A DNA stretch of 64,000 bases from Eubacteriales bacterium. GTDB taxonomy: Bacteria > Bacillota > Clostridia > Oscillospirales > CAG-272. Of the stretch, positions 1-62,880 are shown one piece after another. Both the position numbers and the translations under genes were made by a program. Location of the stretch: NCBI GenBank assembly GCA_045123255.1, contig JBGVIN010000023.1:7247-71246 (forward strand), in the 5' to 3' direction. The notes beneath the pieces are model-generated. The model saw only the letters and a list, made by a program, of their open reading frames with translations. It ran no database searches and was not told the origin of the DNA. Each line of letters begins with the position of its first letter. Position 1 is the first letter of the stretch.

Positions 1-50
1 TAATCGTAGATTCCTCGGCAAGCTCGGATGAAGTCGCTTCGCGGTTAATT
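1..50. repeat. Partial hairpin/linker array at the window edge
   Basis: The sequence reads atgaagt-cgcTTCgcg-gttaatt. Its reverse complement, cgcgaagcg-acttcat, matches the first unit of the array at 19980 (cgcgaagcg-acttaat). It is truncated by the window edge. Confidence 0.35.
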
Positions 51-55
51 TACAC

Positions 56-83
56 AAAAAGGGAACAAGCAAAGCCTGTTCCC
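56..83 (-). terminator. Rho-independent terminator of the metalloprotease gene
   Basis: Stem gggaaca/tgttccc, with an A-run at 56-60 on the plus strand (a T-run on the minus strand). Confidence 0.7.
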
Positions 84-115
84 TTAAATTTGATATTCGG
101 TTTTTTCGGTAGCAA

Positions 116-2989
116 TTATTTTGCACTTACGGTTATAGTTGCCGCGCCCTCTCCTAAGCTGTCAACCGTGAAGGTATAGCCAAGAGGTGTGCCAAGGTCG
201 TCCGTTACCGCGCCCAAGGTGTCACCGATTTCAAAAATATAACCGTTTTCGTTCTCTATAAGCTCGATAAGATTGTTTTCTGTGCCATATTTGTCGCTTG
301 GGTCGGTGTTCGTGTTATAAACGTCATAGTAAATTTCACCCTCGTATTCCTCGGAAAAAAGGGAAGCGTTAACGTGATAAACAAGGATGCCCTCGTTTTC
401 AAAGTAGCCGCCCATACCCGAATTTAATTCGCCGTTTGTGTAGTAAACGAGAATGTAATATTCCTGATATACGCCGAGTGAGGGGTCAAAATTGTTTGCA
501 ATTATTAAGGTGTCACCGTTTTTGGAAAACTCCTCAAGCGTTACGGTAATTTCAGTATCGGTTACAACCAAGCGTGAGGATTTAATCCAACCGAAATTGA
601 ATTTTGTGTAGGCGTTGTGGTCGCCAATTTCCGCATCCATAATATCGTTGCCGTCAAGAGGGGACGAGCCTGTGTATCCCGTGTCGTAATAGTCCTCGCT
701 ACCGAGAATATGTCCAAATTCGTGAATGAAGGTGTACGGATTTATAATCTCGGTGTTTGTGTAATCCTTGTTAAGCTCGATGTCCTCGTGAAGGAAGCTA
801 TATGATGCCCAAAGGTAATCGTTTGCGCTCACTCCGTCGTATTCGTAATAATAATCATTTGCGTCCGTATAGGTGTTCCAATATCTGTACGCCCAATAAA
901 AATCCGTTTCCTCGTCAATTTTAAGCGTTGTAACAAGCACAACCGCGTCGATTATTTGGTTTTCGTCGCTGTCAAACTCCGAAAGGTCCATTGTTTTCGA
1001 GAGGTAAGCAAGCGCCTCGTCCATTACCATTTGGTCACCGATAAGCTCGCCGTCCTGCTTTTGATTTGCATAATATGTGCTTGGCTTTGAGGGACGGAAC
1101 CATTCGTCCACCACGGTAATATCAAGCGTTAGCTGACCCATGCTTGATATGTAGTAATAATCGTAAACAGAGTAGTAGTCGGTTTTGCCGTCCTTATAAA
1201 ACGCTTTTTTGATGTTTTCTATATCGTAGCCGTACGTGCTAGCCTGTCTGTCGCTAAATTCAACGGGAATAACCAAAACGCTTGGTGAACCGACAGTTGG
1301 ACAGCCGTCGATGTAGTAGCCCTGGTCGGTTACGTCCTTTATCTTGTCAGCATCCGTAAAATCTATATCGTATATTCCGTCGCCGTCATCCTTCGGCAGA
1401 GACGCACCTGCGTTTGTTATTACGTTTTTGTTTTCCTCGGGCAAATTGCCACCCTCGTTATCGCCCGTGTTGCCACCGTCACCCTCGTCGCTTGCTTCAT
1501 AGTAAGCATCTACGTCAACGTAGTAAGCGCCCTCGTATTCATAGTAGCAAACGTCAACGAAAACGCCGTTTTTTGAATATAAATACCATGTGTCACCGTA
1601 TTCGTCAACCTCCTCACTGTCCTTTGAAAAGTCGGAAAACATTGCAAGATACCACCCGAATGCGGTTTCGCTGTCGCAAAGTGCGGAGTAGTAAACGCCG
1701 ATATAGCCGTCCTCGTCGTACGCTTCTATATAGTAATCGTTATTCGGCAAAAAGGGAATAACAAATCCTATATATTCATTGTAGGTTGATTTTTCCTCGG
1801 CGGTAAAGCCGTAATATAAATGCTCGCCGTCCGTTTCCCCACCGGGGTTTTCTCCGCCGTCGGGATTTTCATCTCCGCCGCTCTCGCTCGCCTCTTTATA
1901 CGCATCAACGTCAACGTAAGAAACGCCCTCGTATTCATAGTAGCAAATATCTATATAAACGTTGCCTCTTGAAAAGAGATACCAAACGTCGCCGTACTCG
2001 TCCTTTTCTTCACCGTCGCTTACGTATGAGGAATACGCCATAAGGTAGCCGTCAAATTCATCTCTACTTCCGCAAACGGCAGAGAGGTAAACACCGCGGT
2101 ATCCGTCCTCGTCGTAGCCCTCTACGTAGTAATCGTCAGTTGGCAAAAAGGGAATAACGAAGCCTACGTATTCATTGTAGGTTGATTTTTCATCGCTTGT
2201 AAATTCGTTATATATGTATTCGCCGTCCGTGCCGCTATCGGGATTTTCGGGTGTTACTGTGCCCGAGCTTTCTTGTCCTAAGTAAATAACGTCAATAGCT
2301 TCAACGTAGAGCCTGTCGTTTTTGTCAGCTCCGCTAACGGTAACGGTTATCTCGCCTACACCGCTATTTGAAGTAATTGTAAGCGTGTTGCCGCTTTGTG
2401 TCGGCGTGCTGCCGCCCGATACTGTTAGCTTACCGCTTCCGTTTTTACCGTCGGAGAAGGTGATAATTACGGATTTTATTTCGCATCCGTTTTTCGCCAC
2501 AACCGTAAGCGTGCCGCCGTTTTGGTAAATTCTTATCGCACCGCTATATAAAGCAGGCTCAGTGTTGGCACTACCCTTACCAAAGGTAACGAAAATATTG
2601 CTATCAAGCTTTATTTCCTTACCGCTTACAACGTCACCGTTTACACCCTTACCAATGCTTGCTGCCATTTCGTCGGCAGTTTTTGAAGCGGTGATTTCCA
2701 CTGTGCTCGGCGTGTCGCTCGGCTTGTCGGGGTCGTTTCCGTCGCCTGTATTTTCAGACCCTCCGCCCGTTCCGTCGCCTGTATTTGTATCGCCTGTTCC
2801 GCCGCCCTCGCCTGTGCTTGGCGTGTCACTCGGCTTGTCCGTATCGGTGCTATCCCCGCTCGGCTTTTCCGTATCGGTATTACCGCCCACGTCGGTTGAC
2901 GTGTCCGTGTCCGTGCCGCTCGGTACGCACGCGGCAAGCGTTGCCACCACCAAAAGCAGCACTAAAATTATGCCCAAAAGCTTTTTCAT
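116..2989 (-). CDS. Secreted lipoprotein, M6 (immune inhibitor A-like) zinc metalloprotease with tandem-repeat region
   Basis: ORF 116..3076 trimmed to the ATG at 2989 (GAGG about 6 nt upstream). N-terminus MKKLLGIILVLLLVVATLAAC is a signal peptide plus lipobox Cys. It has a G/T/D/S/P-rich linker and two 132-aa tandem repeats. The C-terminal half carries VLVIPVEFSD and HEFGHILG (HExxH) motifs typical of M6 peptidases. Confidence 0.8.
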   Translation of the reverse strand: MKKLLGIILVLLLVVATLAACVPSGTDTDTSTDVGGNTDTEKPSGDSTDTDKPSDTPSTGEGGGTGDTNTGDGTGGGSENTGDGNDPDKPSDTPSTVEITASKTADEMAASIGKGVNGDVVSGKEIKLDSNIFVTFGKGSANTEPALYSGAIRIYQNGGTLTVVAKNGCEIKSVIITFSDGKNGSGKLTVSGGSTPTQSGNTLTITSNSGVGEITVTVSGADKNDRLYVEAIDVIYLGQESSGTVTPENPDSGTDGEYIYNEFTSDEKSTYNEYVGFVIPFLPTDDYYVEGYDEDGYRGVYLSAVCGSRDEFDGYLMAYSSYVSDGEEKDEYGDVWYLFSRGNVYIDICYYEYEGVSYVDVDAYKEASESGGDENPDGGENPGGETDGEHLYYGFTAEEKSTYNEYIGFVIPFLPNNDYYIEAYDEDGYIGVYYSALCDSETAFGWYLAMFSDFSKDSEEVDEYGDTWYLYSKNGVFVDVCYYEYEGAYYVDVDAYYEASDEGDGGNTGDNEGGNLPEENKNVITNAGASLPKDDGDGIYDIDFTDADKIKDVTDQGYYIDGCPTVGSPSVLVIPVEFSDRQASTYGYDIENIKKAFYKDGKTDYYSVYDYYYISSMGQLTLDITVVDEWFRPSKPSTYYANQKQDGELIGDQMVMDEALAYLSKTMDLSEFDSDENQIIDAVVLVTTLKIDEETDFYWAYRYWNTYTDANDYYYEYDGVSANDYLWASYSFLHEDIELNKDYTNTEIINPYTFIHEFGHILGSEDYYDTGYTGSSPLDGNDIMDAEIGDHNAYTKFNFGWIKSSRLVVTDTEITVTLEEFSKNGDTLIIANNFDPSLGVYQEYYILVYYTNGELNSGMGGYFENEGILVYHVNASLFSEEYEGEIYYDVYNTNTDPSDKYGTENNLIELIENENGYIFEIGDTLGAVTDDLGTPLGYTFTVDSLGEGAATITVSAK
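1480..2240 (-). repeat. In-frame tandem duplication (2 x 396 nt) inside the metalloprotease gene
   Basis: The 18-mer cattgtaggttgattttt occurs at 1777 and 2173, a period of 396 nt (132 aa). The protein repeats run EKSTYNEY[VI]GFVIPFLP...YYEYEG..YVDVDAY. Confidence 0.85.
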
Positions 2990-3315
2990 AAAAACCTCAT
3001 TTCCGCCGCCCAAGCAGCCGCTTTTTGCACGCCACCCAAGCAACATTTTTCCGCGCCGTTTTCCCTCTCGGCGCATCTTACACCTAAATTATACCATACG
3101 CTAATTCGTTTTTCAAATAAAATATTAAAATTAAGAAGTGAACAAGCTAATAAATTGTTGATGTTAAAATATTTTTTATTTTGTAAGGGATTTGTTATAT
3201 ATGCCTTGCCTTGTTTGACAACAAATAAAAACGGTGAACATTTTTTATAGTTGAAAGACAACGAATTTTATGGTACACTGTCTTTATGAAGATACACAAA
3301 TGGGAGGAAGCTTTT

Positions 3316-7621: not shown

Positions 7622-7626
7622 CCTTC

Positions 7627-7657: not shown

Positions 7658-7675
7658 CATAAAAATGCAAGAGCT

Positions 7676-8512: not shown

Positions 8513-9004
8513 GTCGCGTGCCATTTCGTGAACGGTGTCGTGGATTGCGTCGAGGTTAAGCTCCTTTGCGCGCTTTGCAAGGTCGAACTTGCCCATTGTT
8601 GCGCCGTTTTCTGCTTCAACTCTCATTTCGAGGTTCTTCTTTGTTGAGTCTGTTACAACCTCGCCGAGAAGCTCTGCAAACTTTGCAGCGTGCTCAGCCT
8701 CTTCCCAAGCTGCCTTTTCCCAGTAAAGACCTATCTCAGGGTAGCCCTCACGGTGTGCAACTCTTGCCATTGCAAGGTACATACCAACCTCTGTGCATTC
8801 GCCCATATAGTTAGCGCGAAGGTCCATAATGATGTCCTCTCTTGCACCTTGTGCAACACCTACAACGTGTTCAGCAGCCCAATAACGGTTTTCCTCTACA
8901 ACCTCGTTGAACTTTTCAGCAGGAACCTTGCATTGTGGGCATCTTTCAGGAGCGCTATCTCCCTCGTGAACGTAACCGCAAACAGAACATACAAACTTTT
9001 TCAT
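8459..9004 (-). CDS. rbr: Reverse rubrerythrin (N-terminal rubredoxin-like CxxC...CxxC domain + ferritin-like diiron domain)
   Basis: N-terminus [28 protein letters not shown] is followed by the diiron ExxH motifs EEAEHAAKF and [18 protein letters not shown] is upstream. Confidence 0.9.
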
Positions 9005-12708: not shown

Positions 12709-12966
12709 GAAAAGTGAGGTTGCAAGCATATAACCCTTATAAAACGCTTGCTTTTCTGTTGCATCCTCGTACTCAATTTCAAGCTCCTCAATTTTCTCAA
12801 AAATTGCGCGTTGCTCTTTGGTTAACGTTTTTGCAAAAGCATCTGTTAATTCATCAATCTGTTCAATAGCAGTAAGCTGCTTGCTTTTGAAAAGTGGCGA
12901 CTCAAATTCGTCCGCCAATCCCGAATTAAATGCTTTTTCCGTAAATTTTTCGTAATTAAATTTCAT
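12697..12966 (-). CDS. Small helical hypothetical protein (89 aa), divergent partner of XRE genes
   Basis: An ORF with an AAAGGAGAA-type RBS. It matches 27019..27288 in length and architecture. Confidence 0.55.
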   Translation of the reverse strand: MKFNYEKFTEKAFNSGLADEFESPLFKSKQLTAIEQIDELTDAFAKTLTKEQRAIFEKIEELEIEYEDATEKQAFYKGYMLATSLFLIE

Positions 12967-12984
12967 AATTTTCTCCTTTACTTT

Positions 12985-13057
12985 GCATATATTCGTATGC
13001 TTTTATCTATATTTTAGCATACATATGTATGCATTACAAGAGCATACAAACATATGC
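12985..13057. promoter_or_regulatory. Three candidate operator sites, GCATA-N6-TATGC
   Basis: GCATATATTCGTATGC (12985), GCATACATATGTATGC (13017, a perfect palindrome) and GCATACAAACATATGC (13042) lie in the divergent promoter region. Confidence 0.45.
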
Positions 13058-13100
13058 GTGATAAAATCAAGTTGATTTTATCTAAAAAGTGGGGAAAACA

Positions 13101-13319
13101 ATGATTTATTATCAAAGATTGAAGGATTTAAGAGAGGATAACGATAAAACGCAAGAGGAAATTGCCGCGCTTCTTGGCATTTCAAGACAGCATTATTCTC
13201 TTTACGAGCGTGGATTAAGAGAGCTACCAATGCACCATTTTGTCACCCTTGCAAAATATTATAACGTTTCTCTTGACTATATTTCGGGCATTTTACAAAC
13301 ACCGAAAAAATTGTATTAA
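13101..13319 (+). CDS. XRE-family helix-turn-helix regulator (72 aa)
   Basis: MIYYQRLKDLREDNDKTQEEIAALLGISRQHYSLYERG. The ATG at 13101 follows GGGGA. Confidence 0.8.
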   Translation: MIYYQRLKDLREDNDKTQEEIAALLGISRQHYSLYERGLRELPMHHFVTLAKYYNVSLDYISGILQTPKKLY

Positions 13320-13342
13320 AACGAACAGGGGGAGTGATTTGG

Positions 13343-13561
13343 TTGTATAATTATCAACGGTTGCGCGATTTGCGTGAGGATTTAGATAAGACACAAGCAG
13401 ATATTGCAGAAGTATTAGGCATCGCACCTCAGCAATATCAATTGTACGAAAGCGGCAAAAGAGAAATGCCGATGCACCATTTTATCACTCTTGCCAAATT
13501 TTACGACGTATCGCTTGACTATATTTCGGGTATTTTACAAACACCGAGAAAACTGTACTAA
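13343..13561 (+). CDS. XRE-family helix-turn-helix regulator (72 aa), tandem paralog
   Basis: (M)YNYQRLRDLREDLDKTQADIAEVLGIAPQQYQLYESG. The TTG at 13343 lies 9 nt after GGGGGA. The tail SLDYISGILQTPRKLY matches its neighbour. Confidence 0.72.
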   Translation: MYNYQRLRDLREDLDKTQADIAEVLGIAPQQYQLYESGKREMPMHHFITLAKFYDVSLDYISGILQTPRKLY

Positions 13562-13585
13562 AATAGAAAAGTGACGAACTATACT

Positions 13586-13616
13586 AAAAAACAGCCACGT
13601 GTGTGGCTGTTTTTCT
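13586..13616. terminator. Bidirectional terminator
   Basis: aaaaa-acagccac-gtgt-gtggctgt-tttt. Confidence 0.75.
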
Positions 13617-13630
13617 TGTTTTTTATTAAA

Positions 13631-19924: not shown

Positions 19925-19959
19925 AATCCCTCTTTGGTTACTCCAAGGAGGGATTTTTT
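19925..19959 (+). terminator. Terminator of the CE4 gene
   Basis: aatccctc...gagggatt followed by ttttt. Confidence 0.75.
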
Positions 19960-19979: not shown

Positions 19980-20048
19980 CGCGAAGCGACTTAATCCACC
20001 AAAGGCGGACTTAATCCATTTATGGACTTCATCGCGTAAGCGATTTCA
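19980..20048 (+). repeat. Hairpin/linker array A (linkers ACTTAAT, ACTTAAT, ACTTCAT, ATTTCAT)
   Basis: The hairpins cgcGAAgcg, ccaccAAAggcgg, ccatTTatgg and cgcGTAAgcg are each followed by a 7-nt linker. Confidence 0.7.
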
Positions 20049-20174
20049 TTTTCCATTATCCCCCTCCCGTTTGTTTGGTACGTACCGTTTGGGCGGGAGG
20101 CAGGTTGCCTCCCCTACAAGGTGCCGAACATTCCCCCTTGTCATTCCGAGCCTGTCGAGAAATCTCAAAGCGGA

Positions 20175-20406
20175 CAACCAATGGTTGCCCCTATATCCAT
20201 CAACCGCAGGTTGCATATCATCACACATAGTGTGCATATCACCAATGCAAAGCATTGTATATCATCACCGCAGGTGTATATCATCAAGGCATTCGCCTTG
20301 TATGTTCCTCACGCACCATAGGTGCATATCACGTGGCTGAGCCACATATCACGCCTTGCTTACAAGGTTATATCACGTGCCCACGCACATATCACGTCCG
20401 CAGGAC
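20175..20406 (+). repeat. Hairpin/linker array B (11 hairpins, linker [CT]ATATCA[CT])
   Basis: The 11 hairpins are caaccAATggttg, caaccGCAggttg, cacacATAgtgtg, caatgcAAAgcattg, caccGCAggtg, aaggcATTCgcctt, gcaccATAggtgc, gtggcTGAgccac, ccttgCTTAcaagg, gtgcCCACgcac and gtccGCAggac. They are separated by catatcat, catatcac, tatatcat and atatcac linkers. Confidence 0.8.
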
Positions 20407-23668: not shown

Positions 23669-23715
23669 CCTTCCCTAGCAGGGAAGGGGGACCACGACAG
23701 TGGTGGATGAGTAGA
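23669..23715. repeat. Left terminal inverted repeat of the DUF559 cassette
   Basis: ccttccctagcagggaagg ... gatgagtaga. The reverse complement of 24114..24158 matches it at the outer 19 nt and inner 10 nt. Confidence 0.75.
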
Positions 23716-23732: not shown

Positions 23733-24101
23733 ATGAGTTATAAGTATGATAAAAACCTTGTTCCTTTTGCACGAGATTTAAGAAAAAATATGACGCCCGA
23801 GGAAAAACACCTTTGGTATGACTTTCTTAAAAAGCTACCAATCACCGTCAACCGTCAAAAAAATATCGGTAATTATATTGTTGATTTTTTTATTTCGACA
23901 AAAAATATAGCCATTGAGCTTGATGGAAAAGGGCACGGCGAAAAGGAACAGCTTGAAAAAGACAAGGCTCGCGACGAGGAATTATATAAAATCGGCATTA
24001 CGGTTTTGCGGTATCAAAACACAGAAATAAACAAAAATTTTAATGGAGTATGCAGAGATATTTTAAGTAAGCTCGAAATAAAGGAAGAAAGCTTGAAATA
24101 A
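23733..24101 (+). CDS. DUF559 (Vsr-like endonuclease fold) protein
   Basis: ARDLRKNMTPEEKHLWYDFLKKLPITVNRQKNIGNYIVDFF...IELDG, a typical DUF559 N-terminus and core. Confidence 0.8.
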   Translation: MSYKYDKNLVPFARDLRKNMTPEEKHLWYDFLKKLPITVNRQKNIGNYIVDFFISTKNIAIELDGKGHGEKEQLEKDKARDEELYKIGITVLRYQNTEINKNFNGVCRDILSKLEIKEESLK

Positions 24102-24113: not shown

Positions 24114-24158
24114 TCTACTCATCCGTCGGCAAGCCGACACCTTCCCTGCTAGGGAAGG
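24114..24158. repeat. Right terminal inverted repeat of the DUF559 cassette
   Basis: tctactcatc ... ccttccctgctagggaagg. The loop tgcta is the reverse complement of the left-copy loop tagca. Confidence 0.75.
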
Positions 24159-26985: not shown

Positions 26986-27020
26986 AAAAGAGGCGTCGCT
27001 AATGCGACAGCCTCTTTTTT
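26985..27020. terminator. Bidirectional terminator
   Basis: aaaaagaggc-gtcgctaatgcgac-agcctctttttt. Confidence 0.8.
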
Positions 27021-27288
27021 AATCGCTTTTTAACAGTTCAATAGCAAAATTAAAACCTAAGCGGAAGGAATATTCAAACATTTCCTTTTCATTTAATGCA
27101 ATTATATCTAAATTACACTCCTCATAATTTTCAAACAACTCAATTTGCTTCTTATTAAAGTCAGTAGTAATTTTGTCATATAAATCGCTTCTTTTTTTAA
27201 CAAGCTCCTTTTTTTCTTTCGTATTTTTGTAATAATCAGAGCAAGGATTTATATTTCCGTACCATAATTCTTCTAAAATTTTATTCAT
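27019..27288 (-). CDS. Small helical hypothetical protein (89 aa), paralog of 12697..12966
   Basis: The ORF is trimmed from the GTG at 27330 to the ATG at 27288 (AAAGGA upstream). The protein starts MNKILEELWYGNINP. It is divergent from an XRE gene. Confidence 0.55.
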   Translation of the reverse strand: MNKILEELWYGNINPCSDYYKNTKEKKELVKKRSDLYDKITTDFNKKQIELFENYEECNLDIIALNEKEMFEYSFRLGFNFAIELLKSD

Positions 27289-27323
27289 TTTTCTTGTCCT
27301 TTCTTTTTCACTGTTTTTATTAT

Positions 27324-27339
27324 AGTTCACTTATGAACT
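27324..27339. promoter_or_regulatory. Candidate operator palindrome AGTTCA-N4-TGAACT
   Basis: A perfect 6-4-6 palindrome lies in the divergent region. A further AGTTCA half-site lies about 30 nt downstream. Confidence 0.35.
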
Positions 27340-27419
27340 AATTTCAAGTGTATTTAGTTCATTTATGATATAATCTACATATTGAACAAAATATATGCCT
27401 GAAGGAGATTTTGTAAATT

Positions 27420-27641
27420 ATGCAATATTCACAAAGATTAAAGGATTTAAGAGAAGATAGTGATTTAAGCCAAGAAGCAGTTGCTAAAATTTTATGTACA
27501 AGTCAGTCATACTATGCTCAATATGAAAACGGAAAAAGAGAGCTTCCATTTAGCCGAGCAATTATTCTTGCTAAATTCTATAACGTTTCGCTTGATTATA
27601 TTGCAGGAATTACAAGCATTCCAAAAAAACTTAATAAATGA
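27420..27641 (+). CDS. XRE-family helix-turn-helix regulator (73 aa)
   Basis: MQYSQRLKDLREDSDLSQEAVAKILCTSQSYYAQYENG...SLDYIAGITSIPKKL. It is a paralog of the 13101 and 13343 genes. Confidence 0.8.
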   Translation: MQYSQRLKDLREDSDLSQEAVAKILCTSQSYYAQYENGKRELPFSRAIILAKFYNVSLDYIAGITSIPKKLNK

Positions 27642-27653
27642 TTTGGTGATACT

Positions 27654-31342: not shown

Positions 31343-31507
31343 TTTTTTGAAGATAATTTTTCGTTAAAAAATCAGTCAGATAATAAAAAAATAATTAACA
31401 AAAAGAGTAAAATTTTGGGATTTTTTTCTTAAATTTTGCTCTTTTTTATTTTATATATGTAAATTTTCTATTAACAAATATTACAAAAAACACTTGTTTT
31501 TATAGTT

Positions 31508-31582
31508 TTTTCCACACAATAAGTTGAAAATGTATATATAATAAAGAAGAAATTTTTCATTTTTTCTTGACAGTTTTCCACA
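31508..31582 (+). promoter_or_regulatory. Two DnaA boxes upstream of dnaA (oriC left part)
   Basis: TTTTCCACA at 31508..31516 and 31574..31582 (1 mismatch to TTATCCACA), in a very AT-rich 368-nt spacer. Confidence 0.65.
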
Positions 31583-31710
31583 CCTGTGCTATACTATATA
31601 TAATTATAATTATATGTATAACTATATTTAGGCGCATTTTTTACATATTTTGCGCTTTTAACTTCTCGCGCGTGCGCTATACGTGCGCGTATGAGTATGA
31701 AAGGAGCTTT

Positions 31711-33099: not shown

Positions 33100-33110
33100 T
33101 TTTTCTTATC

Positions 33111-33198
33111 TTTTCCACATTTTATCAACACGCGAAAAATCCCTTAAAATCAAGGGCTTGTCCGTCTTTTCCACCTCGTTTTTTTCAACGGTGGAAAG
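33111..33198. promoter_or_regulatory. Three DnaA boxes downstream of dnaA (oriC right part)
   Basis: TTTTCCACA at 33111, TTTTCCACC at 33167, and GGTGGAAAG at 33190 (the reverse complement of CTTTCCACC). Confidence 0.6.
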
Positions 33199-33339
33199 AA
33201 TGTTTCTAAGTTTTGGCAATTTTGGGTAAAATTTTATTTACGGCTTTTTCAAAATTACCAACATTTTTCAACAGGGGTGAGTGAATAAAATTTCCTCAAA
33301 ACGGTTATACTATATAGCTTTACAGGGCTTTTCAACGTA

Positions 33340-33415
33340 TTAACCACCCCCTACTACTACAACTACTACAATATATAAATATAAATTAAAATAAAAGAAA
33401 AATAAAAGAAAAAAT
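33340..33415 (+). promoter_or_regulatory. Origin unwinding module: DnaA-box-like 9-mer, GC cluster, DnaA-trios, AT-rich DUE
   Basis: TTAACCACC (33340), then CCC. Next come seven trinucleotides, CTA CTA CTA CAA CTA CTA CAA (33351..33371), with complement 3'-GAT-5'. A 44-nt pure A/T tract follows (33372..33415). This is the same layout as the Bacillus subtilis dnaA-dnaN incC unwinding element. Confidence 0.7.
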
Positions 33416-33452
33416 CCATTTTCGTTTTTTTGGATTTTGAAAGGATTTTACA

Positions 33453-34607
33453 ATGATTGCTATTTTTGATAAGGACGCGCTTCTTTCAGCTATCGGTCCT
33501 ATTATGAATACCGTTTCGGGCAAAAACACAATGGCTTGCATTGAGGGTATTTTAATTGAATGTAACCAAGAGGATAATATTTGTACTCTCACCTCGTACG
33601 ACCTTGAAAAGGGAACGAGAACTCAGCTTGACTGTAACGTTATTGAAAGAGGTAAATGCATTATAAATGCTAACAAGCTTCTTCAAATTATAAGAACGAT
33701 GCCGAAGGGTCCTATCAAAATTTCCGTTGATACCTCATACCGCACGGTAATAGAAAGTGAAAACGGCTTATCTCACTTTGACTTTAAGGCACTTTCAGCC
33801 TCAGAGTTTCCAACCCTTCCCGAGCTTCGCGCAGACCGCGGCTTCAAAATTCCGCAATACCTTTTTAGAAAGTTCGTTAACAGAATTTTGTTTGCAATAG
33901 GACAAAACGATACCCGTCCCGTATTCAACGGTGCTTATTTTGAAATCAGAGATAAGAAAATGACTATTGTTTCATGCGACGGCAACCGCTTGGCTCATCT
34001 TGAATACGAGGCTGAGCTTGAAAACGCAAACGACTCTAAGGCTCCGCTTTATATTCTCTTTATCGTTCCGGGTAAAACCTTGGTTGAGCTGCTCAAGCTC
34101 GTTAAGGACACTGAGGAAACGATGGAAATCCGCGTTGCTAACCGTCAGCTTATTTTCAAGGTTGGCAAATACGTGCTTTTCTCAAAGAAAATTGAGTCAG
34201 CCTATATTGACTACGAAAGAATTATGCCAAAGCAATCAAATATCGAATTTTATCTTAACTGTGAGGAGTTAAGAGGCGCTTTTGAAAGATCTGCACTTAT
34301 CATTGAGGACAATCTTGCGGGCACACTCCGTCCTTACGTTAAGTTTACAATTGACGAGGTGCTTTCAATCTCAACGCTTTCCTCAAACGGAAACGTATAC
34401 GACGAGATTGAAATTGAAAAGATTAAGGGAGACGAGCTTGTTATCGCGTTTAACTGCAAGTTTTTCCTCGATGCATTAAAGGTATGTGATGGCGGCAAGG
34501 CAAAATTAAGCTTTGTTAACCCACTCACAGGCGTTTTGATTGAGCCGCAAAATACGGACGAGGGTAAATTTACTTACTTCATTATGCCAATGAGAATGAC
34601 GCACTGA
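33453..34607 (+). CDS. dnaN: DNA polymerase III beta sliding clamp
   Basis: 384 aa, immediately downstream of dnaA. It has the DTRPVFNGAYFEI motif and the C-terminal YFIMPMRM. Confidence 0.93.
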   Translation: MIAIFDKDALLSAIGPIMNTVSGKNTMACIEGILIECNQEDNICTLTSYDLEKGTRTQLDCNVIERGKCIINANKLLQIIRTMPKGPIKISVDTSYRTVIESENGLSHFDFKALSASEFPTLPELRADRGFKIPQYLFRKFVNRILFAIGQNDTRPVFNGAYFEIRDKKMTIVSCDGNRLAHLEYEAELENANDSKAPLYILFIVPGKTLVELLKLVKDTEETMEIRVANRQLIFKVGKYVLFSKKIESAYIDYERIMPKQSNIEFYLNCEELRGAFERSALIIEDNLAGTLRPYVKFTIDEVLSISTLSSNGNVYDEIEIEKIKGDELVIAFNCKFFLDALKVCDGGKAKLSFVNPLTGVLIEPQNTDEGKFTYFIMPMRMTH

Positions 34608-35794
34608 TGAACGTTACTAAAATTGAATTTACCTCGTTTCGTAATATAGAAAGCGAGATTATTGAATTTAATGACGGTATTAACGTTATTTACGGTGAAA
34701 ACGCGCAGGGCAAAACGAATATCTTAGAGGGAATTTACCTCTTTGCAAGAGGAAAGAGCTTTCGTGCCTTCAAGGACAAGGAGCTTGTGAATTTTGAAAG
34801 TAGCGTTGCCTATGCAGTTCTTGACTTTAATACGAGAGATGAAAAAACGAGGCTCGGTGTTGAAATTTCAAAATCCTTGCCGAAAAAGTTTTACAGAAAC
34901 AACGTTAAAATAAATAAAACCTCGGAGATTATAGGTGAATTCCGTGCGGTTTTGTTTTGTCCGTCACACCTCGGCATTATAAAGGACGCACCTGCGGTAA
35001 GAAGAAAGTTTATTGACGTGGCAATTTCTCAGCTAAGACCCGTTTATCTTAAAATGATGACAAGATACAACCAGGTTTTGGAGGAAAGAAACACTATTAT
35101 AAAAATGACTCCGCAGGAAAGGGAGGCTAACGAATCCTTGCTTGACGTTTACAGTGAGGAGCTTGCTTCGCTTTGCTGTGATATTGCCGATATAAGAAAC
35201 GAATATATAAAAAAGCTCGACTACTGGGTTAAGATTTTCTTTAATGAAATGACAAGCGGTAAGGAAATTCCGAAAATCACCTACGAATCAAACGGAGACG
35301 ATGGTGATTTTGAAAGCAGAGAAGCGTTAAAGCAAAGATATTTACATCTTTTGACCGACTATAAGGAAAGAGAATATAAATACGGTGCAACTCTTTTCGT
35401 AATTCACAAGGACGACCTAAAAATAGAAATTAACGGCCGTGATTCACGCCTTTATTCCTCACAGGGACAGCAGCGCTCGCTTGCCTTGGCTATGAAAATG
35501 GCAGAGGGTGAAATTTCCCGCGAGGGCAAGGGTGAATATCCCGTGTTTCTTTTCGACGACGTATTATCCGAGCTTGACGATACACGAAAAAAATATATTT
35601 TATCAAATATAAAGGGCAAGCAGGTTATTATAACCGCTTGCGACAAAAGCGTTTTTGAAAATAACGAGGGATGCCACTTTATAAATATCAAAAACGGAAA
35701 AAAAGGCGAAATTTTAAGCGATTTTTCAGTAGATAACAGTGATAAGTGCGAAAACAGTGAAATGAGCGAAAAAACGCCCGAAACGGAGCTATAA
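34607..35794 (+). CDS. recF: DNA replication and repair protein RecF
   Basis: FRNIES..IEFNDGINVIYGENAQGKTNILEGIY (Walker A), SQGQQRSLALAMK (signature) and FLFDDVLSELD (Walker B). Confidence 0.9.
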   Translation: MNVTKIEFTSFRNIESEIIEFNDGINVIYGENAQGKTNILEGIYLFARGKSFRAFKDKELVNFESSVAYAVLDFNTRDEKTRLGVEISKSLPKKFYRNNVKINKTSEIIGEFRAVLFCPSHLGIIKDAPAVRRKFIDVAISQLRPVYLKMMTRYNQVLEERNTIIKMTPQEREANESLLDVYSEELASLCCDIADIRNEYIKKLDYWVKIFFNEMTSGKEIPKITYESNGDDGDFESREALKQRYLHLLTDYKEREYKYGATLFVIHKDDLKIEINGRDSRLYSSQGQQRSLALAMKMAEGEISREGKGEYPVFLFDDVLSELDDTRKKYILSNIKGKQVIITACDKSVFENNEGCHFINIKNGKKGEILSDFSVDNSDKCENSEMSEKTPETEL

Positions 35795-36025
35795 ATGTAT
35801 ATACATATAGGAAATAACAAGGTCGTTAAAAAATCTATGATTTTAGGCATATTTGACCTTGACTCATCAACCGTTTCAGTTAAAACGAGGAGCTTTTTAA
35901 GTCAGGCACAAAAGGAAAAAAGAGTTATTACCCTTTCTTACGAGCTTCCGAAATCATTTATTATATTAAACAATAACGAGGTATATCTTTCCCCGCTTAA
36001 TACCTCATCAATAATTAAGGGATAA
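35795..36025 (+). CDS. DUF370 (RemB/YaaB-like) small protein
   Basis: 76 aa, MYIHIGNNKVVKKSMILGIFDLD. It holds the conserved position between recF and gyrB. Confidence 0.72.
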   Translation: MYIHIGNNKVVKKSMILGIFDLDSSTVSVKTRSFLSQAQKEKRVITLSYELPKSFIILNNNEVYLSPLNTSSIIKG

Positions 36026-36053
36026 ATTAGCCAAACGAATATTATTTGGCTAA

Positions 36054-37994
<1,941 letters not shown>

Positions 37995-38026
37995 TCAATC
38001 GAAAAATAGATTGAGGAGTAAATAAA

Positions 38027-40600
38027 ATGAGTGAAAAAGATATAAATACTTTAGATTATGAAAATACCGAGCAAATGATAGTTGGCAGAACTATTGAATC
38101 AAGAGTGCCCGAGGCATTCCTTGAATATTCAATGTCAGTTATCGTTTCCCGTGCGCTCCCTGACGTGCGTGACGGTATGAAGCCCGGTCAAAGGCGCGTT
38201 ATGTACGCGATGTACGAGGACCACTTAACGAGTGACAAGCCGTTTAGAAAATCCGCAACGACAGTTGGTAACGTGCTTGGTAGATACCATCCGCACGGTG
38301 ACCAGTCCGTTTACGGCACTATGGTTAGAATGGCACAGCCCTTCTCACTCAGATACCCACTCGTTGACGGCCATGGTAACTTCGGTAACGTTGACGGTGA
38401 CGGTGCGGCTGCTTACCGTTATACAGAGGCAAGAATGTCAAAGCTCGCAAACGAGCTTATGAGCGATATTGAAAAGGACGTTGTTGACTTCGTTCCTAAC
38501 TTTGATAACTCGCGCAAGGAGCCGACTGTGCTTCCCTCACGCTTTCCTAACTTTTTGGTAAACGGTAGCGTTGGTATTGCGGTTGGTATGGCAACGAACG
38601 TGCCGCCTCACAACCTTGGTGAGGTTATTGACGGTACTATTCACTTAATCGACAACCCCGACTGTACGGTTGCCGACTTAATGGAGCATATCAAGGGTCC
38701 TGACTTTCCGACAAGCGCGACAATTTACGGCAAGCGCGGTATAATCGAAGCATACGAAACGGGTCACGGACGCGTTATGGTTCGTTCAAAGGCAAAGATT
38801 GAGGAGGACCACCACCGTATTATCATTACCGAAATTCCTTATATGGTAAACAAGAGCCAACTCGTTGAAAGAATTGCCGACCTCGTTAAGGAAAAGCGCG
38901 TTGAGGGCATCTCGGGCATCCGTGATGAATCGGGACGTGCAGGAATGAGAATAGTAATTGAATATAAGCGTGATGCAAACGCACAAATTATATTAAACAC
39001 TCTTTACAAAAATACACAGCTTCAGGACACCTGTGCCGTTAATATGCTTGCTCTCGTTAATGGCGAGCCGAAAACGCTTAACCTAAAGCAGGTGCTTGAA
39101 AACTACGTTGAGTTCCAAGAGGAGGTTGTGCTTCGCCGTACTAAGTTTGAACTCGCAAAGGCTAAGGCGGAGGAGCATATTTACGAGGGCTACAAGATTG
39201 CACTTGATAATATCGACGAGATTATTGCAATTATCAGAAGCAGTGCAAGCACACCCGAGGCAAAGGAAAGATTGAAGGAAGCGTTTAATCTCTCCGACGA
39301 GCAGGCGCAGGCAATCGTTGAAATGACTCTCGGCCGTCTTTCGGGACTTGAGCGTCAAAAGATTGAGGAGCGCTTACTCAAGCTTCAGGAAACAATTAAG
39401 GAATTAAACGAAATTATTACAAATCCCGAAAAATTAAAGTCACTTATTAAGGAAGAGCTTTCCGAGATTAAGAGAAAATTTGCAGATCCTCGCCGCACCG
39501 ATATTATCGACAGTGAGGAGGAAATCGACATTGAGGACTTAATTGAGCGTCACGAGTGTGTAATTACGCTTACAAATTCGGGCTATATTAAGAGAATTCC
39601 CGCAGATACCTACTCTGCACAAAAGCGCGGCGGCAAGGGTCTTATCGCAATGCATACAAAGGACGAGGACTTTATTGAAAAGGTTCTTGTTGCAAATAGC
39701 CACGACTACTTACTTATGTTCACCGACAACGGTAAAATTTTCGTTCGTAAGGTATATAGAATTCCCGAGGCTTCAAGAACGGCAAAGGGCTCTAACCTTA
39801 TCAACTTAATTGAGCTTGAAAAGGGCGAGCGCGTAACCGCTATGGTAACGCTTTCCGAGTTTATACACGGCGAATACCTCACTATGGTAACGAAGAACGG
39901 TATTATTAAGCGTACCGATATTGCAGAATACGAATATCAGCGCAAGGGCGGTAAGATTGCAATCAATCTCGACGAGGGTGACAAGCTTATCTTCGTTGGA
40001 CATACAGACGGCACACGCCATATTCTTATTGCTACAAAGAACGGCTATGCAGCACGCTTTGATGAAAACAAGGTTTCAGTAGTTGGCAGAACAGCACGCG
40101 GTGTACGCGGAATTGATTTGCGCGAGGGTGATATAGTTTGCGGTGCGGTTATCGTTGATAACGACAAGCAGCTTCTTACAATTACCGAAAACGGCTACGG
40201 CAAGAAGAGTAATTTTGACGAGTTTGAGCCAAGAAACCGCGGTATTTTGGGTGTAATAGCTCATAATATCAACGAAAAGACAGGCTTGCTTGCTTCTATT
40301 GCCTGCGTTGACGAAACGAAGGACGTAATGCTCATTACAAATGAGGGCGTTATTATAAGAACAGCAACTGACGTTATTCCAACCTACAAGAGAAGCACGA
40401 CGGGCGTTAAGATTATGCGTCTTGACGACGGTGCAATTGTTGCAAACACAACTCTTGTTGATAAGGAAGAGGAAGGCGAAGAGTGCGAGACTGACGAAAA
40501 TTCAGTAGCTACCGAAAGCGTGCAAGAGGTATCGTCAGAAAATGAAGCGGTAGCTGAAAATACCGAAAAAACAGACACTCCTCAAGATGAAAATGAATAA
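38027..40600 (+). CDS. gyrA: DNA gyrase subunit A
   Basis: YSMSVIVSRALPDVRDGMKPGQRR, HPHGDQSVYGTMVRMAQ and AAAYRYTEARMS motifs. It has an acidic C-terminal tail. Confidence 0.97.
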   Translation: MSEKDINTLDYENTEQMIVGRTIESRVPEAFLEYSMSVIVSRALPDVRDGMKPGQRRVMYAMYEDHLTSDKPFRKSATTVGNVLGRYHPHGDQSVYGTMVRMAQPFSLRYPLVDGHGNFGNVDGDGAAAYRYTEARMSKLANELMSDIEKDVVDFVPNFDNSRKEPTVLPSRFPNFLVNGSVGIAVGMATNVPPHNLGEVIDGTIHLIDNPDCTVADLMEHIKGPDFPTSATIYGKRGIIEAYETGHGRVMVRSKAKIEEDHHRIIITEIPYMVNKSQLVERIADLVKEKRVEGISGIRDESGRAGMRIVIEYKRDANAQIILNTLYKNTQLQDTCAVNMLALVNGEPKTLNLKQVLENYVEFQEEVVLRRTKFELAKAKAEEHIYEGYKIALDNIDEIIAIIRSSASTPEAKERLKEAFNLSDEQAQAIVEMTLGRLSGLERQKIEERLLKLQETIKELNEIITNPEKLKSLIKEELSEIKRKFADPRRTDIIDSEEEIDIEDLIERHECVITLTNSGYIKRIPADTYSAQKRGGKGLIAMHTKDEDFIEKVLVANSHDYLLMFTDNGKIFVRKVYRIPEASRTAKGSNLINLIELEKGERVTAMVTLSEFIHGEYLTMVTKNGIIKRTDIAEYEYQRKGGKIAINLDEGDKLIFVGHTDGTRHILIATKNGYAARFDENKVSVVGRTARGVRGIDLREGDIVCGAVIVDNDKQLLTITENGYGKKSNFDEFEPRNRGILGVIAHNINEKTGLLASIACVDETKDVMLITNEGVIIRTATDVIPTYKRSTTGVKIMRLDDGAIVANTTLVDKEEEGEECETDENSVATESVQEVSSENEAVAENTEKTDTPQDENE

Positions 40601-51526: not shown

Positions 51527-51705
51527 ATGAATTGAAGCAAAGCTTCATAAATTGTAACTATGTTACATAAATTGCGCCGTTGGCATATGTATTGTCGCAA
51601 AGCAACATTAAAAATGACGTTAGTCAATTCATGGCGTTTGCCAATTCATGTTTCGCAGAAACAATTCATGACGAAGTCAATTCATGTTTCAAAGAAACAA
51701 TTCAT
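51527..51705. repeat. Hairpin/linker array C (10 hairpins; ATGAATT-like linkers, then AATTCAT x5)
   Basis: The 10 hairpins are gaagcAAAgcttc, gtaacTATgttac, gccGTTggc, gtcgcAAAgcaac, gacGTTAgtc, ggcGTTTgcc, gtttcGCAgaaac, gacGAAgtc and gtttcAAAgaaac, with gccGTTggc set in gcgccgttggca. The last linker contains the TGA stop of 51702..52421. Confidence 0.85.
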
Positions 51706-52443: not shown

Positions 52444-52645
52444 ATGAATTGTGCCAATGGCACATGAATTGTTGCGAAGCAACATGAAATGAAGCAGAGC
52501 TTCATAAATTGTGACAAAGCACATTAATTGTTTTTCTGAAACATGAATTGGCTCCGCCATGTTCTTTTAATGCCAACGGCAATTCATGACACATTGTGTC
52601 AATTCATGTCCGTAGGACAATTCATGATGCCACGCATCAATTCAT
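52444..52645. repeat. Hairpin/linker array D (10 hairpins; ATGAATT-type x6, centre, AATTCAT x4)
   Basis: Left hairpins are gtgccAATggcac, gttgcGAAgcaac, gaagcAGAgcttc, gtgacAAAgcac, gtttTTCTGaaac and ggcTCCgcc. After the centre come gccAACggc, gacacATTgtgtc, gtccGTAggac and gatgcCACgcatc. The last linker contains the TGA stop of the radical SAM gene. Confidence 0.85.
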
Positions 52646-59359: not shown

Positions 59360-59543
59360 TGACGCAAACGCGTCAATGAAATGAATCCCCAAGGATTCTT
59401 GAAATGACCTTTCGGTCATGAAATGATTGCTGTGCAATCGTGAAATGCTCTTTTGAGCATAGGATTCATTTTATTTCATGATATTGTAAATATCATTTCA
59501 AGACAAGCTTGCTTGTCATTTCAAGTGCGAAAGCACATTTCAT
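59360..59543. repeat. Hairpin/linker array E (8 G...C hairpins; ATGAAAT-type x4, centre, ATTTCAT/ATTTCAA x4)
   Basis: It starts 1 nt after the carB stop. See the findings for the unit list. Further hairpins (ttttgccAAggcaaaa, gcttgcTTGgcaagc) extend to 59614. Confidence 0.85.
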
Positions 59544-59633
59544 CATATCATCACTTTTGCTTTGCAAAACCAAAGCTTTTGCCAAGGCAAAATCATAACG
59601 CTTGCTTGGCAAGCTTATAGTTAAAGGATTTAT

Positions 59634-61267: not shown

Positions 61268-61965
61268 TGGGAAAGGACGTAATTGTAGCTTGTGACTTTG
61301 CAAGCAAGGAAGAGGTTTTTGCATTTCTTGACAAATTTGAAAATGAAAAGCCATTCGTTAAGATTGGTATGGAGCTTTTTAATGCGGAAGGACCCGATAT
61401 CGTACGCGAAATTAAGAAAAGAGGTCACAAAATATTCCTCGACTTGAAGCTTCACGATATTCCAAACACGGTTAAAAAGGCAATGGCTGTGCTTTCACGC
61501 CTTGACGTAGATATGACAAACGTACACGCAAGCGGCACTATTGCAATGATGGAGGCGGCGCTTGAGGGTCTTACACGTGAGGACGGCACCTGCCCACTTT
61601 TAATAGCTGTTACTCAGCTTACCTCAACGAGTGAGGAAAGAATGAAAAATGACCTACTTATCAACGAGCCAATGGACAAGGTTGTTATGCACTATGCATC
61701 TAACGCAAAGAAAGCAGGCCTTGCAGGTATCGTTTGCTCACCGCTTGAGGCAGAAAAGGTACACGAGGTGTGCGGCAAGGACTTTGTAACCGTAACTCCG
61801 GGTGTGCGCTTTGCAGACGGTGACAAGGGCGACCAGGTTAGAGTTATGACACCGCAAGAGGCAAAGAAGATAGGCTCAGACTATATCGTAGTTGGCAGAC
61901 CTATTACGGCAGCGGCAGACCCTGTGGCGGCGTACCGTAGATGCGTAAACGAGTTTGTGGACTAA
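61267..61965 (+). CDS. pyrF: Orotidine 5'-phosphate decarboxylase
   Basis: VACDF..., KIGMELF, FLDLKLHDIPNTV and IVVGRPIT motifs. Confidence 0.92.
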   Translation: MGKDVIVACDFASKEEVFAFLDKFENEKPFVKIGMELFNAEGPDIVREIKKRGHKIFLDLKLHDIPNTVKKAMAVLSRLDVDMTNVHASGTIAMMEAALEGLTREDGTCPLLIAVTQLTSTSEERMKNDLLINEPMDKVVMHYASNAKKAGLAGIVCSPLEAEKVHEVCGKDFVTVTPGVRFADGDKGDQVRVMTPQEAKKIGSDYIVVGRPITAAADPVAAYRRCVNEFVD

Positions 61966-61976
61966 GCCACCAACTC

Positions 61977-62061
61977 GAATTAAATCTTGCTTCGCAAGAA
62001 TAAATCCCTTTGGGATGAAATCACATTGTGATGAAATCCACGCAAGCGTGGGTTGAAAAAT
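61977..62061 (+). repeat. Hairpin/linker element F (after pyrF)
   Basis: GAATTAAAT-cttgcTTCgcaag-AATAAAT-cccTTTggg-ATGAAAT-cacATTgtg-ATGAAAT-ccacgCAAGcgtgg-GTTGAAAAAT. Confidence 0.85.
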
Positions 62062-62125
62062 AGACAAACAAGGGCAATAAGCCCTCCCCTTTGTTTGGAG
62101 GAGAAGCCTTGAAAAGGAGTTAAAA

Positions 62126-62776
62126 ATGGAACAATACAAGAGAGAATTTATACAGTTTTTACAAAACGCAGGCGTTTTGAAGTTCGGTGATTTCACCGCG
62201 AAGAGTGGCAGAAAAATCCCGTATTTTATCAACGCAGGCGAGATTAAAACAGGCGAAAACATCGCAAAATTGGGCGAATTTTACGCAAAAGCGTACTTCG
62301 ACAAATTAGGAAAGAAGGAAGCTGCACTTTACGGCCCTGCATACAAGGGAATTTCAATTGCGGTTGCAACGTCGGTTGCTCTTGCAAGGGAAGGCTTAAA
62401 TCTTCCGTTCTTCTTTAACCGCAAGGAGGTTAAGGACCACGGAGAGGGCGGCGTTTTCGTTGGCTATAAGCCAAAGGCAGGCGAGGAGGTAGTTATCGTT
62501 GAGGACGTAATTACCGCAGGCACTGCAATTCGCGAAACGATGGAAATTATGAAGAGCGTTGACGGCATAAAGGTTGCCGCTTGCTTCGTTATGGTTGACC
62601 GCAAGGAAAAGGGTCAGGGCGAAAAGGGCGCAATGGTTGAAATTGAGGAGGAGTTTGGCTTCCCTGTATACTCCGTTGTTGACGTTTACGATATTATCGA
62701 GTACCTCGAAGAGGACGAAGCGAACAGAGAAAACGTTGAAAGAATAAAGAAGTACCGCGAGGTTTACGGAGCGTAA
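62126..62776 (+). CDS. pyrE: Orotate phosphoribosyltransferase
   Basis: FGDFTAKSGRKIPYFIN and the PRPP-binding segment VVIVEDVITAGTA. Confidence 0.92.
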   Translation: MEQYKREFIQFLQNAGVLKFGDFTAKSGRKIPYFINAGEIKTGENIAKLGEFYAKAYFDKLGKKEAALYGPAYKGISIAVATSVALAREGLNLPFFFNRKEVKDHGEGGVFVGYKPKAGEEVVIVEDVITAGTAIRETMEIMKSVDGIKVAACFVMVDRKEKGQGEKGAMVEIEEEFGFPVYSVVDVYDIIEYLEEDEANRENVERIKKYREVYGA

Positions 62777-62880
62777 GCATAAGCGAGCTTATGCAATTAA
62801 ATCCAAGCAAGGCTTGGAATAAATCCCTGCGGGATGAAATCGCAAAACGATGAAATCCGCGCAACCGCGGACTGAATAAT
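62777..62880 (+). repeat. Hairpin/linker element G (after pyrE), paralog of F
   Basis: gcataagcGAgcttatgc-AATTAAAT-ccaagcAAggcttgg-AATAAAT-cccTGCggg-ATGAAAT-cgCAAAAcg-ATGAAAT-ccgcgCAACcgcgg-ACTGAATAAT. Confidence 0.85.

Follow-up and report, generated by a model that had tools for sequence, protein, structure and literature searches.

Hairpin/linker arrays in the window

The DNA analysed here, a stretch of 64,000 nucleotides from contig JBGVIN010000023.1 of a Clostridia assembly (referred to throughout as the window), is a segment of a bacterial chromosome that carries dnaA-dnaN-recF-gyrB-gyrA at 31.6-40.6 kb, recA, typA and, at 54.9-64 kb, the pyr operon pyrC-carB-pyrK-pyrD-pyrF-pyrE-pyrB. 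Distributed through its spacers are eight arrays, A to H, in which small hairpins of varying sequence alternate with a short linker that changes little within an array, and whose relation to an orphan RNA family of the Rfam database, Gut-1 (RF01706), is our subject.

Array A, 1..50, plus strand: two units with an ATGAAGT linker, cut by the window edge (from sequence reading)
Array B, 19980..20048, minus strand: four hairpins, linkers ACTTAAT/ACTTCAT/ATTTCAT
Array C, 20175..20406, minus strand: about 11 units, linker (C/T)ATATCA(C/T), the reverse complement of GTGATAT
Array D, 51527..51705, strand not assigned: bipartite, ATGAATT/ATAAATT units followed by AATTCAT units
Array E, 52444..52645, strand not assigned: bipartite, six ATGAATT-type units, a centre, four to five AATTCAT units
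Array F, 59360..59543, strand not assigned: full-length Gut-1-type element between carB and pyrK
Array F, left half, 59376-59451, plus strand: four NTGAAAT linkers, each with its hairpin
Array F, centre, 59452-59472: GC-ATAGGATTCATTTT, complementary to 59379-59388 (AAATGAATCC)
Array F, right half, 59473-59543: three hairpins with ATTTCA(A/T) linkers
Array F, appendix, 59558..59614, plus strand: TTTTGC-TTT-GCAAAA, TTTTGC-CAAG-GCAAAA, GCTTGC-TTG-GCAAGC
Array G, 61977..62061, plus strand: four units with linkers AATTAAAT, AATAAAT, ATGAAAT and ATGAAAT, in the pyrF/pyrE gap
Array H, 62777..62880, plus strand: paralogue of G, with the linkers in the same order and hairpins that differ but are still paired

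If arrays built from such short units had arisen by chance, they should be as frequent in shuffled DNA. In a strict scan, which required a 7-mer with no more than one mismatch to recur in at least three copies at a spacing of 14-32 nt, and every spacer to pair into a stem of 3 bp or more, the window contained eight chains, against none or one in each of 20 dinucleotide shuffles. The pattern TGAAAT-N9-19-TGAAAT-N9-19-TGAAAT was matched four times, where 0.01 matches were expected. These controls contradict chance, and an assembly artefact is contradicted by the presence of the same architecture in independent assemblies of several studies and in the 2007-era human-gut sequences of the Gut-1 seed; the one thing that speaks for either is the shortness of single units, and we regard both as practically negligible. 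The arrays are real and abundant, and the initial annotation, which had read a shared architecture at these eight loci and proposed comparison with shuffled sequence as a check, was right on this point. Among viral contigs, none of 227 places with three ATGAAAT copies at array spacing had hairpin spacers, unlike a scan of the same contigs with GTGAAAT linkers, which did yield hairpin arrays, and a metagenome scan found no true arrays in about 350 kb of pyr loci of more distant relatives (PyrE identity of 82% or less). An exact look-up of the PyrE protein encoded in the window retrieved no recorded entry.

The spacers span 9-23 nt and form stems mostly of 3-7 bp with loops of 3 nt (59 cases) or 4 nt (40), the outer pair being G-C or C-G in 73 of 112; the hairpin dimensions originally reported thus hold. 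Although 106 of the 112 spacers are distinct, their sequences are not wholly unrelated, as had been supposed: stems, GATTGC/GCAATC among them, are shared by arrays whose linkers differ, giving 28 shared-stem pairs where 2.75 were expected. Similarly, the linkers are uniform within an array, as described, but they are not unrelated across loci, all being variants of N-[T/C]-G-A-[A/T]-A-T (i.e., N-Y-G-A-W-A-T) or its reverse complement. The linker is indeed a 7-nt repeat, but not a single strand of 7-8 nt, because stems often extend 1-2 bp into it (AT...AT) and leave only 3-5 nt truly unpaired. In D, E and F the right half bears the reverse complement of the left-half linker, which makes these arrays bipartite.

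Arrays F, G and H each occupy a gap between pyr cistrons, with H beginning right after the pyrE stop codon; E is intercistronic, between a radical-SAM gene and a DUF4886 gene; and D lies in the 3' untranslated region (UTR) of that DUF4886 gene, between the stop codon (within the last linker) and a terminator at 51509-51478(-). Overall, five of the eight arrays are within operons or a 3' UTR, and three are between a terminator and the next promoter: A is on the far side of the terminator that ends the minus-strand gene 116-3076, B directly follows a strong intrinsic terminator at 19925-19955, and C separates the upstream terminator from the typA promoter region. Taken alone, array A is a weak candidate, to which its likeness to array B lends support; the linkers of B are reverse complements of the ATGAAAT type. 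The upstream stop codon is either overlapped by the array or 11-30 nt from its start, and at D and E the upstream gene actually ends at the TGA contained in the first linker, so that the placement near stop codons noticed at the outset holds. The extent first given for array F requires amendment: an array does occupy 59360-59543, but it runs on to about 59614 with the three appended hairpins, which are perfect and have linkers different from its own. No dedicated promoter or terminator for the arrays is evident at the window loci.

A second short motif, CCTCCC(G/C)TTTGTTTGG, occurs twice on the plus strand (20063-20078 and 62083-62098), where 0.09 occurrences are expected by chance; its copies lie about 15-25 nt downstream of arrays B and G, each inside a C-rich/G-rich hairpin.

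Gut-1 RNA and the full-length element

When the whole window is searched at Rfam gathering thresholds, tRNA alone is found and no array is reported. Permissive Rfam searches on short array stretches, in contrast, returned Gut-1, for which the curated gathering score is 50 bits. The left half of array F scores 49.3 bits on the plus strand (E = 4.6e-8), just under this cut-off, and its right half 29.7 bits on the minus strand; in array C, also on the minus strand, 20321-20397 scores 33.0 bits and 20210-20286 scores 23.5 bits; and G, H and D score 29.3, 27.4 and 19.1 bits. No window array reaches the gathering score, whereas arrays of the same architecture in related metagenome-assembled genomes (MAGs) clear it at 53.1-67.2 bits, for which reason we regard the window copies as near-threshold or diverged relatives of Gut-1. 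In bipartite arrays the two halves match the model on opposite strands. The initial annotation was therefore mistaken in finding no known family to which the arrays could be matched, and had itself named a database hit of this kind as grounds for abandoning that view.

Gut-1 RNA was described by Weinberg et al. 2010 (Genome Biol 11:R31, PMC2864571) from 43 examples, all from human-gut metagenomes, with a consensus of three variable hairpins joined by conserved GUGAAAU (or GUGAUAU) linkers and a function given as unknown; Rfam types RF01706 as 'Gene; sRNA', i.e., a stand-alone small-RNA (sRNA) gene. The arrays agree with this description in several respects. Model alignments and sequence reading both find at least three consecutive hairpins with a (G/A)UGA(A/U)AU linker; the stems vary from spacer to spacer while remaining paired (521 of 527 pairs are Watson-Crick); and the nearest relatives, MAGs of uncultured Clostridia (Oscillospiraceae and neighbours), come from the guts of ruminants, birds and humans. 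Moreover, reverse-complement AUAUCAC units, i.e., the bipartite form, are already visible in the unmodelled flank of the original seed rows. On these sequence grounds, the eight loci are copies and derivatives of a single repeat family, that of Rfam's Gut-1, and the feature is accordingly not categorically new, having been catalogued as an orphan family. Our literature search returned no follow-up on Gut-1 after 2010 and nothing relevant on comparable hairpin arrays, on REP elements of Clostridia or on repeats of the Oscillospiraceae.

What is new is how far the arrays depart from the published description. Gut-1 as described is a stand-alone sRNA of three hairpins, whereas here there are also arrays of two to about 11 units; the linkers go beyond the consensus to include ATGAAAT, ATGAATT, GTGATAT, CGATAT, GCTAAAT and others; and the copies, rather than standing alone, are located in operons and 3' UTRs and are inverted, expanded or lost between strains. 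Bipartite architecture, linker variants, operon arrays and changes at the level of the DNA are thus all additions to the account of the family. An orphan 'small RNA' that has been in Rfam since 2010, known from human-gut reads alone, can now also be placed in MAGs of animal-hindgut Clostridia (Oscillospiraceae and relatives).

To define the complete unit, we compared array F with the copies in L001, L005, L038 and L061 and with eight loci of a viral collection; the copies in L001 and L005 are orthologous or paralogous to F. The full-length element measures about 165-180 nt and consists of linker 0, hairpin 1, three linker-hairpin modules, a centre, and three hairpins with reverse-complement linkers. 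Its centre always holds a perfect complement, 9-11 nt long, of the end of linker 0 plus the 5' arm of hairpin 1, such that an inverted repeat of 9-11 nt brackets the left half. The Rfam Gut-1 model thus corresponds to the left half only of an element of about 170 nt. Array F is a complete copy of this element, and the other loci are versions of it that have been expanded, shortened or inverted in part.

In all seven distinct linker families, the linker of the right half complements that of the left: ATGAAAT/ATTTCAT, ATGAATT/AATTCAT, ATATCGT/ACGATAT, GCTAAAT/ATTTAGC, TCGATAT/ATATCGA, GTGAAAT/ATTTCAC and ATGATGT/ACATCAT. Pairing them yields a ladder of four linker rungs and three four-way junctions, which in six elements folds 10-18 kcal/mol better than the hairpins alone but is never the minimum-free-energy structure; that of array F uses the 5'-to-centre helix, with a folding z-score of -7.1. 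The first, variable linker base matches its nested partner in most cases, though not all, and position-specific covariation is inconsistent.

Several canonical elements lie directly behind a tRNA gene and terminator, with unrelated genes downstream. In L333, L358, L411, L417, L422 and L038 the order is a tRNA gene, a terminator AAAAAGCACTTGC-NNNN-GCAAGTGCTTTTT and a full-length Gut-1-type element; some contigs with this arrangement are filed as viral in IMG/VR.

Remodelling of arrays between strains

Between L001 and L003, whose PyrE proteins are identical and whose pyrE genes share 97.7% nucleotide identity, none of 34 linker positions but about nine of 42 hairpin positions have changed, including a G:C to C:G flip and the replacement of a loop. 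The intergenic regions of ten strains with one and the same PyrE protein are highly variable, and whole units are gained or lost exactly at the linkers: of the four units A, B, C and D seen in L005, L212 has A, C and D, whereas L213 and L215 have A, B and D; one array numbers four units in L215 but three in L213; and a block duplication of the form A-B-C-A-B is also present. Comparison of orthologous regions had been proposed to reveal units gained one at a time with duplication of the linker. Units are indeed gained and lost singly at linkers, but the gained units resemble their neighbours.

Neighbouring units are in fact diverged duplicates whose indels are matched in both arms of the hairpin (e.g., GCTTTGC-TTTC-GCAAAGC vs. 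GCTTGC-TCAC-GCAAGC, and CAAC-TTC-GTTG vs. CAC-TTT-GTG), and in one case a loop has been exactly inverted (ATTT to AAAT). At the level of entire arrays the distribution is patchy, lineage-restricted and multi-copy. Array G is kept in L091 (96% identity), identical except for one loop base, and array H and the neighbouring leader are absent from that strain; at the DUF4886 locus, L302 (93.6% identity) has no array E, and array D is missing from L306.

Inversion adds to this turnover. Relative to L302 and L303, array D is inverted as a whole in the window, while its flanks are collinear: aligned in inverted orientation with L302, it shows 73% identity overall and 91% outside two unit-sized gaps (17-18 nt), as against 60% in a collinear alignment. 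Array D thus exists in both orientations among strains, and it may be an invertible segment (inverton). Array E is unidirectional in L303, where the distal units are the reverse complement of the window's right half, and L015 has two Gut-1 arrays with identical hairpins, at 175-250 (-) and 8595-8670 (+), that are exact reverse complements 8.4 kb apart. This last pair brackets part of the pyr region.

In L214, L218 and L220 the pyrF-pyrE spacer (~2585-3001) measures 416 nt instead of the 127 nt of sister strains. It is bounded by direct repeats of about 40 nt (GGGCGGACAGGCAAGCATAGAACAAAGGGCAAGGGTTAAA) and contains a leader-like element in reversed orientation and only the right half of a full-length Gut-1-type element.

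DNA repeat or structured RNA

If the stems were maintained by selection on an RNA, G·U pairs should be tolerated and A·C mismatches should not. A strict census of the stems counted 521 Watson-Crick pairs, 3 G·T and 3 A·C; a census anchored on the linkers counted 669 Watson-Crick pairs, 7 G·T, 10 A·C and 6 others, with 121 of 158 spacers perfect. Because G·T and A·C are equally frequent, these are the counts to be expected from neutral decay of a DNA palindrome. G·U pairs do make up about 10% in a structured element of these intergenic regions (window 62903-63008), which serves as an internal contrast.

The arrays are, moreover, multi-copy, dispensable, orientation-independent and remodelled at short direct or inverted repeats, with arms that are perfect on both strands. 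We therefore favour, at about even confidence, the explanation that they constitute a non-coding palindromic repeat acting at the level of the DNA, similar to the repetitive extragenic palindromes (REPs) and bacterial interspersed mosaic elements (BIMEs), which slippage, inversion and template switching would reshape and which would be transcribed passively. Its module is the 7-nt linker (N-Y-G-A-W-A-T) followed by a perfect palindrome of 3-7 bp with a 3-4-nt loop. Each hairpin would bring the flanking 7-nt direct repeats together, and replication slippage or unequal exchange between these repeats could then cause the turnover of units; and template switching within or between palindromes may keep the arms perfect and flip loops and blocks. 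As the strain comparison shows, inversion of blocks or whole arrays between opposed linkers interconverts the unidirectional and bipartite forms. The arrays also resemble REP/BIME or miniature inverted-repeat transposable elements (MITEs) in their habitat, which consists of gene 3' ends, intercistronic gaps and terminator-promoter spacers, and their TGA/TAA-rich linkers provide stop codons when an array lands in the 3' end of a gene. Within operons, the passively transcribed RNA would fold as a string of hairpins or as a ladder in either orientation. REP hairpins protect upstream mRNA against 3' exonucleases, and the likeliest consequence of the arrays may be similar, i.e., an exonuclease barrier and a spacer between cistrons.

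Comparison with known systems brings out both the likeness and its limits. As in REP/BIME, short extragenic palindromes are arrayed with short linkers in clusters after stop codons and between cistrons, in multiple copies that vary among strains; but REP units share one conserved palindrome, whose orientation alternates unit by unit, whereas in the present arrays conservation is confined to the linkers, the palindromes vary, and the orientation changes a single time in each array. MITEs and palindrome-associated elements (Correia, RUP, PATE) are likewise short non-coding sequences, present in many copies, that fold strongly and have inverted ends, and they share with the arrays insertion polymorphism and the possibility of landing in gene 3' ends, but they lack the modular hairpin/linker interior and the variation in unit number. 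At the 13 full-length elements, furthermore, there is no consistent flanking duplication or constant terminal sequence, though the outer linkers are inverted. Perfect stems, simultaneous compensating changes, matched insertion and loop inversion, all seen here, also characterize the template-switch hairpins of Monttinen and Loytynoja 2022 (PNAS, PMC8794818), in which template switching during replication produces multi-site compensation, matched stem extension and loop inversion in one event; their cases are single hairpins of rRNA and microRNA genes, whereas ours are tandem arrays with conserved linkers. CsrB/RsmZ sponge RNAs and ToxI antitoxin arrays also display a short repeated motif between or on tandem hairpins, but in CsrB the GGA motifs are in loops and read by one known protein, and ToxI consists of identical repeats next to a toxin gene; the present arrays show neither feature.

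Other families were considered and rejected. A CRISPR array does not fit a conserved part of 7 nt (instead of about 23-50), 'spacers' that are palindromes of 9-23 nt, and a window with no cas domains; tandem intrinsic terminators are ruled out by the lack of U-tracts; iterons or phased protein-binding sites by a period of 16-30 nt that is not phased; and transposon-excision footprints by palindromes that exclude the linker. Integron attC arrays, type III antitoxin RNA and PyrR binding sites were rejected as well.

Several observations weigh against a DNA-level origin. The greater conservation of linkers than hairpins between L001 and L003 suggests that the linkers are read by something. The count of 4 + 3 hairpins is constant in 13 elements from at least six lineages, as would also be seen in a structured RNA under selection; the 5'-to-centre complement is perfect in all 13 and takes five different sequences (AAATGAATCC, GAAATTTGCCC, GAAATCCACCC, GAAATAAATCC and GATATAAATCC); and a conserved G·U in the five F-type copies would lengthen the long-range helix on the sense strand only. 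The element recurs at a syntenic tRNA-terminator locus across species, and unidirectional arrays are mostly sense (about 15 vs. 4, by our own tally of arrays that are not independent). The commonest loops, TTC and GAA (as GC-TTC-GC and GC-GAA-GC), are also unevenly distributed, with TTC on the GAA-linker strand and GAA in arrays of the opposite type; because loop type follows the linker strand, we take the right halves to be true inversions of the left halves. Finally, no mobilizing enzyme was found: a Pfam scan of 48 window open reading frames (ORFs) detected no transposase, HUH or recombinase domain, and specifically no RAYT (a Y1 HUH transposase).

A serious rival, though in our view a less likely one, is that the arrays are a functional structured RNA, an extended Gut-1. 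Such an RNA would either close a long-range helix of 10-13 bp around hairpins 2-4 or form four 7-bp rungs with three perfect four-way junctions; its AU-rich linkers would serve as sites for RNases or proteins or as part of an RNA scaffold, and the shorter arrays, degenerate or modular, would act in cis on the processing or stability of operon mRNA. Weinberg et al. 2010 (PMC2864571) rated Gut-1 as certainly RNA, and not cis-regulatory, on the basis of covariation, and the conserved linkers, covarying stems and free loops are consistent with their assessment. So are the exact fit of the 4 + 3 count to the ladder, the energy that the ladder gains over hairpins only and the low folding z-score, the sense bias, the conservation behind tRNA terminators, and the long-range complement, which is better preserved than the stem of hairpin 1 in L315 and, the window's own copy excepted, in the F-type copies (four of five). 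What the RNA explanation does not predict is the absence of any wobble excess (7 G·T vs. 10 A·C), an antisense-type half in every bipartite element, the inversion of a whole array inside a 3' UTR between close strains, or the positions of B and C between a terminator and a promoter; nor would we expect arrays to be dispensable between strains and followed by unrelated genes, the ladder to fall short of the minimum-free-energy fold, or the position-specific covariation of linkers to be inconsistent. The initial annotation had offered an RNA module as one of two possibilities, and that suggestion survives in part: left and right linkers are always complementary and the ladder improves on the hairpins, but wobble pairs are not in excess and the arrays occur in either orientation.

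Its other possibility, a DNA-level process in which new and unrelated small palindromes are repeatedly inserted with duplication of a 7-nt target, was sound in locating the dynamics in the DNA. Direct repeats of the linker do flank every hairpin, and linkers are uniform within an array, both as this process would require. The new units, however, duplicate their neighbours at the linkers (e.g., CAACTTCGTTG vs. CACTTTGTG, the GCTTTGC... and GCTTGC... pair, and the A-B-C-A-B block), stems recur across arrays, and the linkers form one family rather than arbitrary targets, all of which makes this form of the model very improbable. We also think it improbable that the arrays are non-autonomous mobile elements or inversion substrates of a structure-specific DNA enzyme dedicated to them, whose gene would lie in another part of the genome (e.g., a RAYT or IS200/IS605-like HUH transposase that works on single-stranded hairpins, or an invertase) and whose target would be 'any hairpin plus YGAWAT linker'. 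Occurrence in multiple copies at unrelated loci, presence or absence between strains, a full-length unit of fixed architecture with inverted outer ends, and linkers more conserved than stems would all be expected of such an element, and the inversions are bounded by linkers of 7-11 nt, which is short for homologous recombination. Against it stand the lack of a candidate enzyme domain among the 48 ORFs scanned, element ends with neither a consistent target-site duplication nor a target motif, and gains of units that resemble local duplications.

A more speculative proposal concerns the full-length element itself. It could represent a new architectural class of folded nucleic acid, a four-rung ladder of 7-bp helices with three perfect four-way junctions, each bearing two arbitrary hairpins, that toggles with the state closed by the 5'-to-centre helix; it would then either function as an RNA scaffold or switch or be acted on by a structure-specific recombination system, as yet unknown, that expands and flips the arrays. 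We view this possibility as doubtful.

For the REP/BIME-like repeat that we prefer, the larger interest lies in how the family evolves, i.e., by unit slippage, matched changes in two arms, and inversion, since this bears on whether it is a functional RNA or a selfish or neutral DNA repeat. The arrays offer a natural system for the maintenance of hairpins by template switching and for inversion via short inverted repeats, and they indicate that covariation by itself can mislabel DNA palindromes as RNA genes.

The structured element used above for contrast, a conserved sequence of about 100 nt upstream of pyrB (62903-63008, plus strand), has the form GGGCTTTAGAGGGCGAGGGAAAA...GTCGGCGTAC..GTACGGC...GATTAGAAAAGCA. 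It forms a long hairpin with covariation, has no Rfam match, and occurs near pyr genes of relatives in both orientations: L217 2712-2824, L015 2695-2808(-), L010 3934-4040 and 1688-1782, and L005 12338-12450(-). It may represent a pyr-associated leader that has not been described before, or else a further repeat.

In the window, a gene of the DUF559 family (very-short-patch-repair-like endonucleases; ORF 23733-24101) is flanked by near-identical hairpins at 23669-23687 and 24139-24157, CCTTCCCT-agc-AGGGAAGG and CCTTCCCT-gct-AGGGAAGG, and the gene with its bracketing hairpins may be a small mobile cassette. DUF559 genes adjoin Gut-1-type arrays in L002 and L015 as well.

The window probably contains the replication origin. 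Boxes resembling the DnaA box TTTTCCACA occur in AT-rich spacers flanking dnaA-dnaN-recF-gyrB-gyrA (31343-40600), and GC skew shows no switch and no clear origin at this cluster; because it tracks gene orientation, the replication strand is inseparable from the transcription strand. Two tandem short unannotated ORFs at 12709-13630, which on reading alone resemble helix-turn-helix proteins, have a very similar counterpart at 27003-27653.

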